Below are positions 1 to 44,614 of a DNA stretch of 64,000 bases, piece after piece. Within the stretch, counting starts at the first letter, position 1. Each line of letters begins with the position of its first letter. The DNA is from Candidatus Staskawiczbacteria bacterium (lineage in GTDB: Bacteria > Patescibacteriota > Minisyncoccia > Minisyncoccales > Staskawiczbacteraceae), in NCBI GenBank assembly GCA_023245155.1, contig JAHFKV010000001.1, positions 459,034 to 523,033 of the forward strand, in the 5' to 3' direction. A program made the position numbers and the translations under genes. The notes under the pieces are model-generated. The model did not search any database. It saw only the letters and a list, made by a program, of their open reading frames with translations, and was not told the DNA's origin.

Positions 1-621
1 AAAGATGGGCATTTAATTGAAAGTAAGAATTATTCGGTAAATGGTGCTGATGGGAAAAAGTTAAAAAAGTTACTGAAAGTGCCCGGGGCGCATAATGTTT
101 CGAACGCCTTATCGGCATTGGCAGTGGCGAGGATTTTGGGGGTTAAAGATGTAGTTTCGTTTAAGGCACTGGCAGAATTTAAGGGAACCTGGCGAAGGTT
201 TGAAACTAAACAAAGCAATGGCATAACGGTTATTTCTGATTATGGGCATCATCCAACGGAAGTAATGGCAACACTTAAAGCTGCGCGGGAAAAGTTTGGG
301 CGTCAGAAAATTTGGTGTATTTTTCAGCCGCATCAGCATCAGCGCACGTATTATTTGTTCAAAGATTTTGTGAAACTTTTCAAAACGGTAAAGATTGATC
401 AAATTATTATCACCGACATTTACGATGTGGCTGGACGTGAAACAAAAACCATCAACCAAAAAGTGGATTCGCAACTGTTAGTCAAAAAAGTTACTAAAAA
501 GAATGTGCAATATATGCCGATGGACAAGGCAGAAAAGTTCGTCAAAGAAAATATTAAGAGTGGAGAAGTGCTGATTATCATGGGCGCGGGAGACGTTTAT
601 AAATTATTTGATAAATTTTAA
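1..621 (+). CDS. murC: UDP-N-acetylmuramate--L-alanine ligase MurC, C-terminal portion (5' end outside window)
   Basis: Frame 1 is open from base 1 to TAA at 619-621. Motifs PGAHNVSNALSALAVA, ISDYGHHPTEV and IFQPHQHQRT are typical of the Mur ligase central/C-terminal domains of MurC. Confidence 0.85.
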   Translation, partial: KDGHLIESKNYSVNGADGKKLKKLLKVPGAHNVSNALSALAVARILGVKDVVSFKALAEFKGTWRRFETKQSNGITVISDYGHHPTEVMATLKAAREKFGRQKIWCIFQPHQHQRTYYLFKDFVKLFKTVKIDQIIITDIYDVAGRETKTINQKVDSQLLVKKVTKKNVQYMPMDKAEKFVKENIKSGEVLIIMGAGDVYKLFDKF

Positions 622-623
622 GT

Positions 624-657
624 AAAAAAACTGGCAAGACCCTGGGGAGTCTTGCCA
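624..657 (-). terminator. Intrinsic terminator of the minus-strand RNA locus (may also serve murC)
   Basis: Stem 632-640 pairs with 649-657. The A-run at 624-630 on plus is a U-run on the minus transcript. Confidence 0.6.
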
Positions 658-938
658 TATGCGGTGGCTGGGAGCTGGTTTATTCAATGCTCCTAGACGT
701 ACCGGCTTTTGACCGGCTGGTGCTGACGACCCGCCTGTCTGCTCTAGGCTTTTTCTTGCGGCATTCGAGGCGGCGTTCTCCCTCGAATGGTACGATTCCT
801 CTGCATCCGCAGATGCAGAGGAAGATCGGAGGCCCATCCTCCGATCGAAACATTGCTTTCCTGGTCAATTGCGAGTCCTTTATAAAAGGGGTTTGTTGAG
901 CCAACTCTGGCAAAGCCTATTGCCATCAAGCAGCCCAC
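625..938 (-). ncRNA. GC-rich structured RNA candidate, class unassigned
   Basis: Framed by its own promoter and terminator. Perfect hairpins at 762-789, 796-823 and 824-846. The predicted 5' and 3' ends are complementary. ORFs are open in several frames on both strands, as in GC-rich non-coding sequence. Confidence 0.5.
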
Positions 939-944
939 GTCAAT

Positions 945-972
945 ATATTAACCTTTCTACGGTAAATGTCAA
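945..972 (-). promoter_or_regulatory. Sigma70-type promoter, TTGACA (972-967), 16-nt spacer, TAATAT (950-945)
   Basis: Read directly on the minus strand. The predicted start is near 938-940. Confidence 0.5.
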
Positions 973-1026
973 GAGTTGATGCAATGTTTATACACTTTTA
1001 ATTTTTCAATAATTCAGTATACTTAT

Positions 1027-2217
1027 ATGAATATGCAACAAGCTAACCAAGAGAAAATTGAAGAGGCGTTAACGCGCGGAGTAGAGGAGGTGATTGTCAA
1101 AGATGAATTAAGGCAAAAAATGCTTTTTGGCAAAAAGCTGCGGATTTATTTTGGCGTGGATCCAACTGGCGCTTTGTTGCATTTGGGGCATGCAGTGGTT
1201 TTGTGGAAGCTACGAGAATTTCAAGAACTGGGCCACGAGGTGATTTTACTAATTGGAGACTTTACGGCCAAAATTGGAGACCCTTCCGGCCGTGATGCAA
1301 CGCGTGTGCCGCTGACTGACAAACAGATTAAGGAAAACATGAAGGATTACAAAAAACAGGCGGCCAAGATTTTGGACTTTTCAAAGGTGAAAGTAAAACA
1401 TAATTCTACTTGGCTTTCTAAACTGAATTTTGCCAAGATTTTGGAATTATCCACGCATTTTACGGTTCAGCAAATGCTGCACCGGGACATGTTTGACAAA
1501 AGAATGAAAGAAAACGCGCCGATTAACCAGTCTGAGTTTATGTATCCGCTGATGCAGGGATATGATTCAGTAGCCATGGATGTGGACTTGGAAATTGGCG
1601 GAAATGACCAAATGTTTAATATGCTGGCCGGCAGAACATTGCAGAAAGCGTACAATAATAAAGACAAAGACATTTTAACGGCGAAATTATTGTTGGGGAC
1701 GGACGGCCGTAAAATGAGCAAGACGTATGACAACGCCATTTATTTAACTGACGAGCCAAATGATATGTTTGGGAAAATTATGTCCATTAAAGATGAGCTG
1801 ATTGCAGATTATTTGGAAATTGCTACAAGATTATCAAATAACGAAATTTTAGAAATTAAGAAAATTCAGAACCCGCGAGATCAAAAAGCTTTGTTGGCCA
1901 AAGAAATTGTGAAGATGTATCATGGGGAGAAAGCCGCACAAGAAGCGGCGGAAAATTTTATCAAAATTTTCCGCCGGCACGAAACGCCCACTGAAATTGC
2001 AGTTTTCAAAACTTCGCGCGTAACTTATCCAGTTTTAGATTTATTATTTGATGCAAAACTGGCTGAATCAAAAAATGATGCCCGTCGCGTAGTGGAGGGA
2101 AATGGCGTAACAATTAATAATGTTAAAGTCACCGACTGGCGGCAAGAAATTAATTTGGAAGACGGCATGGTAATCCAGTTTGGCAAGCGAAAGTTTGTAA
2201 AAATAAAACTAAAATAA
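1027..2217 (+). CDS. tyrS: Tyrosyl-tRNA synthetase
   Basis: HLGH and KMSKT class I signatures (GALLHLGHAVV, GRKMSKT) plus a C-terminal S4-like domain. The start is moved to the ATG at 1027 because the ORF-track N-terminus overlaps the divergent promoter. Confidence 0.9.
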   Translation: MNMQQANQEKIEEALTRGVEEVIVKDELRQKMLFGKKLRIYFGVDPTGALLHLGHAVVLWKLREFQELGHEVILLIGDFTAKIGDPSGRDATRVPLTDKQIKENMKDYKKQAAKILDFSKVKVKHNSTWLSKLNFAKILELSTHFTVQQMLHRDMFDKRMKENAPINQSEFMYPLMQGYDSVAMDVDLEIGGNDQMFNMLAGRTLQKAYNNKDKDILTAKLLLGTDGRKMSKTYDNAIYLTDEPNDMFGKIMSIKDELIADYLEIATRLSNNEILEIKKIQNPRDQKALLAKEIVKMYHGEKAAQEAAENFIKIFRRHETPTEIAVFKTSRVTYPVLDLLFDAKLAESKNDARRVVEGNGVTINNVKVTDWRQEINLEDGMVIQFGKRKFVKIKLK

Positions 2218-2390
2218 TGGAATACAATTACCCCAAAAAATCAATCTGGAAGTGGATATTACTATATTTAATTATCGCGGCCGTAGCCTACGGCGCAGTG
2301 TACTACTTTTTCTTTTACAAAAAGGGTGGCTACAACTACAATTCGCAAAGTTATCAAAACAACTATCAAGTGCCGAAACAATTAAAGTAA
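2217..2390 (+). CDS. Small membrane protein (57 aa), hypothetical
   Basis: The ATG overlaps the tyrS stop (ATAATGG). There is one hydrophobic helix, WKWILLYLIIAAVAYGAVYYFFFY. It falls below the ORF-track length cutoff. Confidence 0.35.
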   Translation: MEYNYPKKSIWKWILLYLIIAAVAYGAVYYFFFYKKGGYNYNSQSYQNNYQVPKQLK

Positions 2391-2399
2391 AAATAAAAA

Positions 2400-3815
2400 A
2401 TGCAACGATTTCTTATCAGCGAAACGGCCAAACACATTGGCGAAAAAGTGAAAGTAGCCGGATGGGTGACCGTGCGGCGCGCACATGGCAAGTTGGTGTT
2501 TATTGATTTGCGCGACAGGTCGGGAGTTTTGCAATGCGTGTTTGTGCCGTCCGTAAATAAAGAGGCGCATGAAAAAGCGCAGGAAATTCGCACTGAATGG
2601 GTGGTTGAGCTGATCGGGCAAGTTATTAAGCGCCCGGAAAAAATGGTGAATAAAGAAATTGAAACTGGAAGCGTTGAAATGTCTGTGGAAGAAGTGCAAG
2701 TGATTTCAAAAGCCCAAACTCCGCCGTTTGATGTGACCACCAGTGGCATGGAAGTGAATGAAGAAGTACGCATGAAATACCGCTATTTAGATTTACGCCG
2801 GCCACGGCTGCAGCATAACCTTATTATGCGACACAAGGCAGCAAAATTTGTTAGAGATTTTCTAACTGCTGAAGGTTTTATTGAAATAGAGACACCAATG
2901 CTGACCAAGTCTACTCCGGAGGGATCAAGAGACTTCGTGGTTCCATCTCGTTTACAGCCAGGGAAGTTTTACGCATTACCGCAGTCGCCACAACAGTACA
3001 AGCAGTTATTCATGGTGGCTGGTTTGGAAAGATATTTTCAGATTGCGCGAGCACTGCGGGATGAAGACGTAAGAGGGGATAGGCAGTTTGAGCACACGCA
3101 AATTGATATGGAAATGAGTTTTGTCCAAAGAGAGGACGTCATGGAATTGAACGAGCGTATGATTATTGCGGTGGTCCAGAATTTATTTCCTGAAAAGAAG
3201 ATACAAGAGATTCCATTTCCGCGTTTAAGTTACAAGGAGGCTATGGAAAAATATAATTCTGATAAACCGGATATTCGCACGGACAAAAATGATCCAAATT
3301 TACTGGCTTTTTGTTGGGTGATTGATTTTCCATTTTTTGAAAAAACAGATGAGGGCGGTTGGACGTTTACGCACAATCCGTTTTCGGCTGCCAAACCAGA
3401 GTTTGCCAAAGATCTGATAGAAAAAAAGAATATTGGCAATATCTTAACCACTCAATACGATTTGGCTTTAAATGGTGTGGAAGTTGGCGGAGGCAGCGTT
3501 AGAAACCATACTCCTGAAGCCCTGGAAAAAGTATTTGAAATTATGGGGTATAAGACTGAAGAAATTAAAAAACAGTTTAGTCACATGCTCGATGCTTTTA
3601 GTTTTGGAGCTCCGCCACATGGAGGGATTGCCTATGGATTTGATAGGCTCTTGGCCACGCTTTTAAATGAAACGAGCATTCGCGAGGTAATTGCTTTTCC
3701 AAAAACCGGGGATGGCCGCGACTTGATGATGGATGCCCCAAGCGAAATTTATCCGGCACAATTGAAAGAGTTGCACATTAAGGTTGAAAATCCGAAACTA
3801 AAGAAGAAAGCATGA
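2400..3815 (+). CDS. aspS: Aspartyl-tRNA synthetase, bacterial-type core without the GAD insertion
   Basis: FIDLRDRSGVLQCVF OB-fold region. Class II motif 2 is FQIARALRDEDVRGDRQFEHTQIDMEMSF and motif 3 is GGGSVRNH...GIAYGFDR. At 471 aa it is shorter than typical bacterial AspRS. Confidence 0.9.
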   Translation: MQRFLISETAKHIGEKVKVAGWVTVRRAHGKLVFIDLRDRSGVLQCVFVPSVNKEAHEKAQEIRTEWVVELIGQVIKRPEKMVNKEIETGSVEMSVEEVQVISKAQTPPFDVTTSGMEVNEEVRMKYRYLDLRRPRLQHNLIMRHKAAKFVRDFLTAEGFIEIETPMLTKSTPEGSRDFVVPSRLQPGKFYALPQSPQQYKQLFMVAGLERYFQIARALRDEDVRGDRQFEHTQIDMEMSFVQREDVMELNERMIIAVVQNLFPEKKIQEIPFPRLSYKEAMEKYNSDKPDIRTDKNDPNLLAFCWVIDFPFFEKTDEGGWTFTHNPFSAAKPEFAKDLIEKKNIGNILTTQYDLALNGVEVGGGSVRNHTPEALEKVFEIMGYKTEEIKKQFSHMLDAFSFGAPPHGGIAYGFDRLLATLLNETSIREVIAFPKTGDGRDLMMDAPSEIYPAQLKELHIKVENPKLKKKA

Positions 3816-9403: not shown

Positions 9404-10087
9404 ATGAAAATACCCCAGCATATCGTCTTGTTTCCCGACGGTAATCGAAGATGGGCTAAAACCAATAATCTTTCCATTAACAAAGGCTATTTGGCCGGCG
9501 AAAAAAACTTCGCTGATTTTTTACGTTGGTGCAAAAGCAGGGGAGTCAAGGTGATTACCGTATTTGGTTTTTCAACCGAAAACTGGAAACGTCCCAAGCA
9601 GCAAGTGAATTTTCTCATGCACCTGTTTGAAAAATATTTGGGCGAGGGGATTGAAGATCTTACCAAAGAGGGCGCTAGAATAAAAATTATCGGTCAAAAA
9701 GAAAAGTTATCTCCATCACTGCAACAAGTGATAAAAAACGTAGAATCTGCCACAGAGAACAACACTGCCATTCATATTAATTTGGCAGTTAGTTATGGTG
9801 GCAGGTGGGATATTTTGCAAGCCTTTAAAAAAATGTCAGAGGAGGGGATTGCCTCAAGTAAAATAACAGAAGAATCTTTGGAGCGATATTTGTCTACGGC
9901 TGGCCTGCCCGAACCAGATTTAATCATCAGGGCGGGTGGCGAAATGCGTATTTCTAATTTTGTGTTGTGGCAAGCGGCCTATGCGGAGCTTTATTTCTCC
10001 CCCAAAATGTGGCCGGATTTTAATGAGCAAGATTTAGATACGGCCTTAGAAGAATTTGATAGGCGTCATCGGAGATTTGGCTCTTGA
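9404..10087 (+). CDS. uppS: Undecaprenyl diphosphate synthase
   Basis: [26 protein letters not shown] and a C-terminal RFG. Confidence 0.9.
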
Positions 10088-10125
10088 CAGAACATGTAAA
10101 ATATGCTAGATTCACCCTAGCATAT
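10084..10125 (+). promoter_or_regulatory. Promoter TTGACA (10084-10089), 17-nt spacer, TAGATT (10107-10112), overlapped by a perfect inverted repeat ATATGCTAG-N7-CTAGCATAT (10101-10125)
   Basis: Read directly. The -35 overlaps the uppS stop codon. The 9-bp palindrome arms span the -10 and the predicted start site. Confidence 0.55.
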
Positions 10126-10150
10126 TTCACTTACACCCAGGAGTCCCGCC

Positions 10151-10510
10151 ATGAAAAGCCAACCCAGCTACCGGCCCGTACTCGAGGTGTTGGAAAAAAG
10201 GGAAGCGACGGCAGGAGGAATCTCTCTTTTTCCGGAGGCCTTCATGCTGTCACCCCTGCCGCCACAAGCGCTTGCTGCGCTCTGGCTCCCAACACACGAA
10301 GAGGTGCCACCCCCTTTCCAGTTGGGGGTGCAAGAAGCCAAGTCCAAGTCATGGTTTCCACCAGAGCATGAGTGGCGTTATCTCGCGCCCAGCCACAATA
10401 CTCCCATGTGCTGGGATCCGTGGCTTGATGCGCGAGTGATTGCCAATCCGTATGCGTCTCTGTTGAATGGCAAGGAGATCGGGTTCTGGATTGAATTTGG
10501 TCTCCTTTAG
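10151..10510 (+). CDS. Hypothetical protein (119 aa), GC-rich, Pro/Trp-rich
   Basis: AGGAG lies 7 nt upstream of the ATG. The gene has its own promoter and terminator. I recognise no family. Confidence 0.5.
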   Translation: MKSQPSYRPVLEVLEKREATAGGISLFPEAFMLSPLPPQALAALWLPTHEEVPPPFQLGVQEAKSKSWFPPEHEWRYLAPSHNTPMCWDPWLDARVIANPYASLLNGKEIGFWIEFGLL

Positions 10511-10533
10511 CCGATTCATCGTGGCTAGAAACT

Positions 10534-10567
10534 AACGTCCCTTCTTTTGGAGAGTAGGGACGTTTTT
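10534..10567. terminator. Bidirectional hairpin terminator shared by convergent genes
   Basis: AACGTCCCT (10534-10542) pairs with AGGGACGTT (10556-10564), followed by a T-run. On the minus strand it directly follows the endonuclease stop. Confidence 0.6.
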
Positions 10568-32574: not shown

Positions 32575-32613
32575 CTCCTTTTATTATAGTGCGCTCAAAA
32601 AATATTGCAAATG

Positions 32614-32684
32614 TGGACCCACGGGGAATCGAACCCCGCCCTCGTCCATGCCATGGACGCGTAATGCCGATTTACTATGGGCCC
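32614..32684 (-). tRNA. tRNA-Ala (anticodon GGC)
   Basis: A cloverleaf can be read by hand: acceptor GGGCCCA/UGGGUCC with G3:U70, anticodon stem CGUCC/GGACG, loop AUGGCAU, T-arm CGGGG-UUCGAUU-CCCCG. No CCA is encoded. Confidence 0.9.
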
Positions 32685-32938
32685 ATAATTAATTTCTGCT
32701 CCAGAACTATTTTTTCAATAATATGTCTGTTTTTAAAATTTTTCAACTTCAATTCCATGCGCCTTGCATCTATCTCATTTGTATACTCTTTTTGGAAAAC
32801 AATTTTTAGTGGTCTCAAATATTTCAAGGATTTCGTTTTACCTGAGTTGTGTTCTGCTAGTCGTCTTTCCAAGTCATTGGTGCTGCCAATATAGTATCTA
32901 CTATTTTTCTCACTTTGTAAGATATATAAGAAATACAT
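32675..32938 (-). CDS. GIY-YIG nuclease superfamily protein (87 aa)
   Basis: MYFLYILQSEKNSRYYIGSTNDLERRLAEHN carries the GIY...YIG motif. Its stop codon lies inside the tRNA-Ala 5' acceptor stem. Confidence 0.8.
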   Translation of the reverse strand: MYFLYILQSEKNSRYYIGSTNDLERRLAEHNSGKTKSLKYLRPLKIVFQKEYTNEIDARRMELKLKNFKNRHIIEKIVLEQKLIMGP

Positions 32939-32990
32939 ATTTTTCCCCGATGTCTACCGGGATCCCGACTTCATGATTTATTTTTAATAA

Positions 32991-33056
32991 GTGCGTCGGG
33001 AAACCCCCGCCCTCCCCGATGTACATCGGGGCGTCATACCGCTAGACCATAGGCCC
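32991..33056 (-). other. tRNA-like element (degenerate or atypical tRNA)
   Basis: The 5' part folds like a tRNA: GGGCCUA acceptor strand, GUC/GAC D-stem with an AGCGGUA loop, and a CCCCG/CGGGG anticodon stem. The loop is 8 nt (AUGUACAU) and neither a canonical T-arm nor an acceptor 3' strand is present. It shares GAGGGCGGGG with tRNA-Ala. Confidence 0.4.
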
Positions 33057-33064
33057 GTGCTTAC

Positions 33065-34320: not shown

Positions 34321-34392
34321 TGCTCCCACCAGGATTCGAACCTGGAACCAATTGCTTAAAAGGCAACTGCTCTACCGTTGAGCTATAGGAGC
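34321..34392 (-). tRNA. tRNA-Lys (anticodon UUU)
   Basis: GCUCCUAUAGCUCAACGGUAGAGCAGUUGCCUUUUAAGCAAUUGGUUCCAGGUUCGAAUCCUGGUGGGAGCA with anticodon loop CUUUUAA. No CCA is encoded. Confidence 0.9.
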
Positions 34393-44304: not shown

Positions 44305-44532
44305 CTAGACCGGGATGGGCCTTAGATCGATGCCGTGACTTTCCCTGAGAGCTCTTTCGGTCACTTCATCTAGCATGGGCGCCATGCCGGTCGCAACCAA
44401 AGCACGATGGATCGCCGCCGCCGTTTCGCCTCCCCACTCTCCATCGGCGACCATTGCCGGAGACCCGAATCCGAGTCTGATGAGTTCTCCCTGGAGAAAC
44501 TTAATCTGGCCGGACGACAAGATTCTAGCCAT
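44305..44532 (-). CDS. Small protein with a peptidoglycan-binding-like (PG_binding_1-type) fold, GC-rich (75 aa)
   Basis: GAGGAGGG lies 4 nt upstream of the ATG at 44532. The pattern IKFLQGELIRLGF...VADGEWGGETAAAIHRAL resembles the LQ..L..LGY..DG.FG..T..AV motif. Confidence 0.5.
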   Translation of the reverse strand: MARILSSGQIKFLQGELIRLGFGSPAMVADGEWGGETAAAIHRALVATGMAPMLDEVTERALRESHGIDLRPIPV

Positions 44533-44552
44533 GATACCCTCCTCTTTTTGAA

Positions 44553-44614
44553 ACTTCTGCAACTTCGGTTGCAGAAGTTATTAAAATACTAACTTTTTAT
44601 TTTTTAAATGTCAA
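44553..44614 (-). promoter_or_regulatory. Promoter TTGACA (44614-44609), 17-nt spacer, TAGTAT (44591-44586), plus a 5'-UTR hairpin (44553-44580)
   Basis: Read directly. The UTR hairpin CUUCUGCAAC-CGAA-GUUGCAGAAG sits just before the RBS. Confidence 0.5.

Follow-up and report, generated by a model that had tools for sequence, protein, structure and literature searches.

A hairpin-rich minus-strand locus between murC and tyrS in Candidatus Staskawiczbacteria is a structurally unusual variant of a small Cys-rich gene cassette

Introduction

Does a GC-rich, hairpin-rich block in the genome of a Candidatus Staskawiczbacteria bacterium encode a structured RNA or a small protein? The block occupies positions 624 to 972 of a 64,000-nucleotide stretch of DNA (the window, from whose first letter all positions are counted), where it forms a minus-strand unit between the Mur ligase gene murC and tyrS. 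An initial annotation, made by reading the letters, took it for a structured noncoding RNA (ncRNA) of no recognizable class and named a Cys-rich open reading frame (ORF) as the rival reading. Here, we describe the transcription signals, structure, synteny, and leader homology of this locus. It falls outside the known RNA families and can be classed as a variant of a small Cys-rich gene cassette with an unusual structure, and we hold with high confidence that it descends from, or is built on, a zinc-ribbon mini-protein cassette.

Results

A minus-strand transcription unit outside the known RNA classes

The locus lies between murC, with its stop codon at 621, and tyrS, which starts at 1027, both on the plus strand; the Pfam domains recorded on the identical ENA contig (Mur ligase and TyrS) bear out these flanks as first named. 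As expected of a sigma-70 promoter, with consensus hexamers and a spacer of 16 to 18 nt, the minus strand carries TTGACA at 972 to 967, a 16-nt spacer, and TAATAT at 950 to 945 (972 to 945 overall; 10 of 12 consensus matches), and transcription is predicted to start at about G938. At the other end, an intrinsic terminator of the Rho-independent kind (657 to 625, minus strand) combines a GC-rich stem of 11 pairs at 657 to 632 with the tract GTTTTTTT, which holds a run of seven U. Promoter and terminator had both been proposed by eye at these places, and the scan for such signals supports the self-contained transcription unit of about 310 nt that had been drawn from them. The described GC-rich block is likewise present, with 57% GC at 660 to 860 against 42% across the window. 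The convergent murC has no plus-strand terminator directly 3' of its stop codon. No gene is called over 624 to 972 on the window's own contig, a silence that is uninformative because gene callers overlook true members of the family described below.

Comparison with known RNAs returned nothing at the locus. With 4,227 Rfam models at the gathering score, the sole match in the whole window was a tRNA at 34321; at E < 10, only chance snoRNA and miRNA matches appeared between positions 500 and 1100, and no T-box was found in the window. ARAGORN called no tRNA and no tmRNA in positions 1 to 3000. The initial statement that no RNA class can be recognized thus holds, with no match to RNase P RNA, tmRNA, SRP RNA, 6S RNA, or a T-box. 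A tmRNA reading, hinted at by GGGCUG at the 5' end and CAGCCACC at the 3' end, was ruled out, since the T-arm and the G3:U70 pair are both missing and ARAGORN made no call. A repeated palindromic element (REP/BIME, MITE, or RPE-like) was also ruled out, the locus being single copy in the 64-kb window and such an element being found in none of the related loci. Rfam matched nothing at the gathering score in 34 related loci, and blastn and nhmmer found no DNA homologue of the whole locus, or of its body alone, in 160 to 164 related loci.

Elsewhere in the window, a tRNA-Ala(GGC) at 32613 to 32684 (minus strand) reaches 52 bits with the tRNA model of Rfam and is absent from the list of the whole-window gathering scan. 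Upstream of it lie a GIY-YIG-like ORF of 87 aa (32675 to 32938) and a second tRNA-like 5' fragment (about 33055 to 33000). The region from 32613 to 33060 (minus strand) suggests the insertion of a mobile endonuclease at a tRNA gene.

Perfect hairpins cluster in the body of the unit

An inverted-repeat scan recovered, at their exact coordinates, the three back-to-back perfect hairpins that the initial annotation had picked out on the minus strand. The first (824 to 846) has 9 bp and a 5-nt loop and directly adjoins the second (796 to 823), which has 12 bp and a 4-nt loop of the UNCG type, C(UGCG)G; the third (762 to 789) has 9 bp and a 10-nt loop. Counting perfect Watson-Crick hairpins with stems of 9 bp or longer gave 14 in the window, 4 of which fall within 632 to 846. 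Among 3,000 dinucleotide shuffles of 624 to 940, the mean was 0.011 such hairpins and none of the shuffles held two or more, indicating that the clustering is far above chance. Folding of the minus strand gave a minimum free energy (MFE) z of -5.35 against shuffles, no shuffle being as stable, and folding of the plus strand gave -4.67. All 30 pairs of the three stems are Watson-Crick, with no G-U, so that both strands fold almost equally well. The initial annotation had also paired the two ends of the transcript; such complementarity is possible, but it needs a bulged G, and a local 5' hairpin, kept in relatives, competes with it.

Two of the hairpins cover codons of the candidate ORF discussed below, the second those of FLCICGCRG and the third those of PFEGERRLEC. 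The RNA structure of the ORF region was compared with synonymous-codon permutations encoding the same protein, which gave z = -5.0. Members of the zinc-ribbon family, whose mRNAs too are more structured than shuffles, gave a mean z of about -1.4 in the same test, with a range from +0.3 to -3.0. Structure this far beyond codon constraint indicates that the hairpins stand as a feature of their own and do not follow from the peptide sequence.

Controls within the window bear on how GC content and hairpins are to be read. Two other GC-rich islands turned out to be self-contained cassettes for small ORFs, in each of which a perfect 5' hairpin and a terminator accompany a promoter close to consensus: one at 10084 to 10565 (plus strand), whose ORF at 10151 to 10510 encodes a 119-aa orphan, and one at 44305 to 44610 (minus strand), whose ORF at 44305 to 44532 encodes 75 aa with a sub-threshold PG_binding_1 match. 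GC-richness is thus no evidence for an ncRNA in this genome. Perfect hairpins, in turn, are compatible with coding in this lineage, since the tyrS coding sequence itself holds one of 14 bp with a 3-nt loop at 1946 to 1976 (plus strand; CGGCGGAAAATTTT-ATC-AAAATTTTCCGCCG, encoding AAENFIKIFRR). L001 retains this stem. Synonymous differences disrupt it in L161, L004, and L163; in the more remote L002, L003, L013, and L164, amino-acid differences add to the synonymous ones.

Relatives carry a zinc-ribbon mini-gene in the same slot

Relatives were gathered from genome and metagenome collections through TyrS as an anchor, together with a protein-database search. TyrS places the window in Ca. Staskawiczbacteria, with best identities of 73 to 77% in the genome and metagenome collections and 80% for the closest relative, L161, from the protein database. 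Apart from L162, which is the same strain (1 SNP in tyrS), the searched collections contained nothing above 80% TyrS identity. The murC-tyrS spacer proved evolutionarily fluid among these relatives: it is empty in L003, L007, L083, and L163, is occupied by a gene for a small membrane protein in L081 and L087 and by other small ORFs in L084, L086, and L092, and harbors a T-box in L005 and probably L006. The L005 T-box (2377 to 2575, plus strand, upstream of tyrS) scores 56.6 bits against RF00230 (E = 1.3e-11), which is below the gathering score of 93, so that it is missed at the default threshold; that of L006 (about 2530 to 2720, plus strand) was judged from sequence only.

In at least 12 loci (L001, L002, L004, L013, L022, L030, L082/L091/L164, L085, L115, L124, L130, and L161), the slot holds a minus-strand cassette made up of a TTGACA promoter, a leader, a Shine-Dalgarno (SD) sequence, an ORF of 60 to 90 aa, and a terminator. 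These ORFs follow the pattern C-x3-10-C-x3-[LIV]-P-x-G-x3-C-x2-C with a basic tail, that of a four-Cys zinc ribbon. Between L124 and L130, about 10 of the 11 nucleotide differences in the Cys core are synonymous, showing that the zinc-ribbon family is truly protein-coding. Pfam and NCBIfam hold nothing for this family beyond sub-threshold zinc-ribbon matches, and in L164 no gene is called over a clear member. L161 carries two tandem zinc-ribbon mini-genes (2380 to 2945, minus strand), one of type A (LCRGGCGTELPRFEFYCTSC) and one of type B (CRTPDCINPKPKDGSFCDMC), the latter like the ORFs of L001 and L002; the gene caller called neither. The unit in the window occupies this same slot, divergent from tyrS, with a promoter and a terminator of its own.

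The leader of the locus is homologous to those of the relatives

Two elements make up the 5' leader of the minus-strand transcript. The 5'-terminal long hairpin (897 to 937) consists of an outer helix, P1, a 2-nt GA bulge on its 5' strand (927 to 926), and a second helix, P2 (925 to 908). It is followed by a short hairpin, CCUUU-UAU-AAAGG (877 to 889), which sequesters the SD sequence AAAGGA at 881 to 876. A profile of the L161, L004, L013, and L087 leaders, taken from downstream of the promoter, found its best match in the 64 kb, both strands included, at 935 to 871 of the minus strand, over its full length (E = 0.0064), the next-best match having E = 1.1. Including the promoter, for which the relatives have TTGACA types at the equivalent place, lowered E to 0.0018. 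The stretch from 935 to 871 is thus homologous to the leaders of the relatives' zinc-ribbon cassettes.

When six leaders were folded independently, five adopted the P1-GA-P2 arrangement, with quite different stem sequences and the bulge usually beside a U-G pair; in L004, P2 is kept and a 4-nt internal loop replaces the GA bulge. RNAalifold on four leaders gave the SD hairpin as the sole consensus helix, its CCUU/AAGG pairs being kept in all. The start codon of the relatives lies 5 to 9 nt after AAGGA, and the equivalent position in the window is TTG 868. These data define a leader motif, in which a GA-bulged 5' hairpin precedes one that sequesters the SD. A scan with a generic descriptor for the bulged hairpin was unspecific (100 matches against 67 in shuffles).

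A candidate promoter of tyrS overlaps this region on the plus strand (920 to 949; TTGCCA, an 18-nt spacer, and TATATT; 10 of 12 matches). Its -10 (944 to 949) overlaps the -10 of the cassette (950 to 945, minus strand), and competition between the two promoters may therefore occur. Its -35 (920 to 925) is the reverse complement of helix P2 and lies antisense to it, so that the divergent tyrS promoter might explain part of the leader conservation.

A second conserved leader type was seen upstream of tyrS on the minus strand in L084, L086, L092, L094, L115, L124, and L130. It contains ...CTTTCAAACCTRCTY..., a stem, and the extended SD GGAAAGGACAAGTC, and Rfam has no match for it. It precedes zinc-ribbon ORFs in L115, L124, and L130 and, in L084, L086, and L092, another small-protein family with a common G/I-LFNT motif.

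A Cys-rich ORF at family spacing with no family similarity

The candidate ORF runs from 868 to 680 on the minus strand and comprises 62 codons from TTG 868 or 57 from ATG 853, the two starts being in frame. Its translation (MTRKAMFRSEDGPPIFLCICGCRGIVPFEGERRLECRKKKPRADRRVVSTSRSKAGTSRSIE), which includes the stretch MTRKAMFRSEDGPPIFLCICGCR..., shows a cluster of Cys residues and a basic tail. Read from the SD-proximal TTG, the frame stays open to 680, 22 nt short of the terminator, and we estimate the chance of this at the local GC content as about 0.1. Open frames on both strands had been described, and three on the minus strand and one on the plus strand are indeed open. Among the initial proposals, the Cys-rich ORF gains the most from the comparative data, although the AGGAAAG placed before ATG 853 is poorly spaced; TTG 868, by contrast, lies 7 nt after AAAGGA and is the counterpart by position of the relatives' start codon.

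In an ungapped comparison, the ORF has Cys at family positions 1, 2, and 4 (C18, C22, and C36), with [V]-P after the second. The third family Cys is R33, with CGC in place of TGC, a single transition, and an extra Cys stands at position 20; the ORF thus departs from the four-Cys spacing C-x3-10-C-x9-10-C-x2-C. The pattern C-x3-C-x3-[LIVM]-P-x8-C, a motif chosen post hoc, occurs once in the six-frame segments of the window (72,077 residues), in this ORF, and is present in 9 of 13 family members. The GC contents of its three codon positions are 0.48/0.57/0.60, against 0.47/0.39/0.42 for the genome. GC1 is therefore near the genomic value and GC2 and GC3 are raised, a signature that matches type-A members in this frame only.

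The similarity measures gave a different picture. Against the family HMM, the ORF scores 0 to 3 bits, while left-out members score 23 to 45 bits, except L001 (13) and L002 (7). Pairwise z values against the family, from composition-preserving shuffles, range from -1.1 to +1.0 and are no better than those of other frames, whereas true type-A pairs at comparable genome distance reach 3.7 to 14.8. The ORF is thus without significant similarity to the zinc-ribbon family. A concatenation of four frames found nothing at E <= 10 among 5.8 billion proteins, an exhaustive phmmer search with the 62-aa ORF found no homologue among 1.84 billion representatives, and Pfam, NCBIfam, and PDB profiles gave no match. 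A match to phrog_19715 (E = 4.6e-4, over 21 basic residues) was discarded as compositional, tblastn against phages giving E values no better than about 3. The codon-usage likelihood is negative also for true family members and so does not discriminate. AlphaFold2 gave no confident fold for the window ORF (pLDDT 48) or the family (pLDDT 43), and both models are uninformative. The peptide is basic and not hydrophobic.

Discussion

As described above, the locus combines signals of a small gene with a structure that such a gene does not require. Our tentatively preferred reading, to which we give somewhat less than half of the weight, is a highly diverged or decaying Cys-rich mini-protein gene with a heavily structured mRNA. 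The unit would be a monocistronic minus-strand mini-gene, running from a strong promoter through the GA-bulged 5' hairpin and the SD hairpin to an ORF of 57 to 62 codons and the terminator, and it would be the positional and leader-level counterpart of the Staskawiczbacteria-specific four-Cys zinc-ribbon mini-proteins. Its coding part would have diverged past recognition in this lineage, keeping three of the four Cys at family spacing, with the three perfect hairpins laid over it. The transcript would still be an mRNA, and its heavy structure may control stability, translation, or both. The 5'-terminal hairpin might stabilize the transcript or bind a protein, possibly its own product; the SD hairpin would restrict the initiation of translation; and the abutting internal hairpins could slow or gate translation or protect the RNA. 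Translation itself, and zinc or nucleic-acid binding by the product, are likewise what we infer from these features.

The weightiest argument is that the open, SD-defined frame, the Cys spacing, the GC signature, and the basic tail together favor continued translation. Next in weight, the extreme, codon-independent structure, the orphan status, and the lost zinc ligand favor a function at the RNA level or decay. In third place, intact signals and a GC content above that of functional homologues fit neutral decay poorly. Counting against the mini-protein are the missing similarity to the family, a structure beyond that of the synonymous-codon permutations, the lost zinc ligand, the TTG start, the orphan ORF, the post hoc choice of the Cys motif, and the pLDDT of 48. 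Of the initial reading as a structured ncRNA, the exceptional structure and the lack of a known class stood, whereas the noncoding status was not established.

An RNA reading stays as a rival because the ORF is an orphan without family similarity and because the hairpins exceed coding constraint. One form of it, which we consider unlikely though worth serious weight, is a stand-alone structured ncRNA of about 310 nt, a new class derived from or inserted into the old cassette. It would retain the cassette's promoter, leader hairpins, and terminator, with its action residing in the three stacked hairpins, which might bind a protein or serve as a decoy. The MFE z of -5.35, which no shuffle equaled, the four perfect hairpins in about 215 nt where 0.011 were expected, and the C(UGCG)G tetraloop capping one stem all suit such an RNA, as does a structure (z = -5) that goes beyond what the amino-acid sequence accounts for and stands out even among the family. 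It would also be consistent with an ORF lacking family similarity while other genomes have well-conserved orthologues, and with a GC content exceeding that of the homologous genes, since neutral decay in an AT-rich genome would act in the opposite direction. A homologous RNA, however, was not found in the 160 to 164 related loci, and Rfam holds no relative; stems built of Watson-Crick pairs only, with a plus strand that folds almost equally, are unusual for an RNA under selection on a single strand. The frame defined by the SD is open (about 0.1 by chance) with family-like Cys spacing and codon-position GC, and the other GC-rich blocks of this genome are small ORFs. Rather unlikely, in our judgment, is a mini-gene turned into a structured or dual-function RNA, in which the promoter, 5' hairpin, SD hairpin, and terminator would be kept and the old zinc-ribbon coding region would be recast as the three abutting perfect hairpins, which would carry the function.

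The same lost ligand, a single transition away, and the SD-aligned TTG would also be expected of a decaying zinc-ribbon pseudogene, now functionless, whose hairpins would be by-products of template-switch (quasi-palindrome) mutations. No family similarity is left, the slot is fluid (empty in four relatives, with other genes in L081, L084, L086, and L092), and perfect Watson-Crick-only stems fit a recent mutational origin. We regard this as improbable, given a near-consensus promoter, an intact leader fold, SD hairpin, and terminator, 62 codons without a stop, and a GC content of 55 to 57%, above both the genome and the functional homologues; three adjacent, independent perfect palindromes are, moreover, hard to obtain without selection. 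Still other readings share a small probability among them. They include a type-I-toxin-like module, in which a small ORF would be kept inert by SD sequestration and pairing of the 5' and 3' ends and controlled by antisense read-through from murC. The SD does lie within a hairpin, the ends can be complementary, and murC, which converges on the unit, lacks a plus-strand terminator just past its stop, but the peptide is basic and not hydrophobic, end pairing competes with the conserved local hairpin, and neither an antisense promoter nor toxin homology was found, making this module very improbable.

If the mini-gene did turn into an RNA, the locus would be a rare documented coding-to-noncoding transition in a minimal-genome bacterium, and a noncoding locus would show the birth of a structured RNA from a small gene in a reduced genome. 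If, as in the reading we prefer, it is coding, it would be an extreme, fast-evolving member of an undescribed CPR family of zinc-ribbon mini-proteins, whose genes are routinely missed by gene callers and carry a conserved, probably regulatory 5' leader. Either way, equating a GC-rich island with an ncRNA is unreliable here, as small, strongly expressed ORF cassettes are GC-rich too.

Among known systems, the housekeeping ncRNAs (RNase P RNA, tmRNA, SRP RNA, 6S RNA, and T-box) resemble the locus in being GC-rich structured blocks in an AT-rich genome, on the 300-nt scale and with their own promoter and terminator; the locus differs in lacking a tRNA-like end and in matching none of the covariance models, even at E < 10. 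SgrS/SgrT and RNAIII/hld are dual-function or heavily structured small mRNAs in which extensive stable hairpins accompany a small ORF on a short transcript. A short, hairpin-rich transcript with a small ORF is common to them and to the locus, a resemblance of kind only, as the locus has no known target, base-pairing region, or homologue. One-domain zinc-finger micro-proteins occur in prokaryotes, for example, in Haloferax volcanii (PMC6562870). These micro-proteins and generic zinc ribbons (Pfam DZR, PF12773) share with the locus a very small size and little beyond one Cys4 knuckle pair, and 5 of 13 family members have sub-threshold DZR matches; the window ORF differs in lacking a Pfam or NCBIfam match and in belonging to another lineage. 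The closest comparison is with the Staskawiczbacteria zinc-ribbon family itself (P0001 to P0005; ORFs of L004, L013, L161, and others), whose members carry no annotation beyond "hypothetical protein." The window shares with it the slot, the orientation, the cassette anatomy, an ORF of about 60 codons, and a homologous leader, as well as Cys 1, 2, and 4, [LIV]-P after the second Cys, a basic C-terminal tail, and raised GC2 and GC3. It differs in an ORF without significant similarity, an Arg for the third Cys, the extra Cys 20, and the TTG start, and it is set apart by three perfect hairpins and an mRNA structure far stronger than that of any member.
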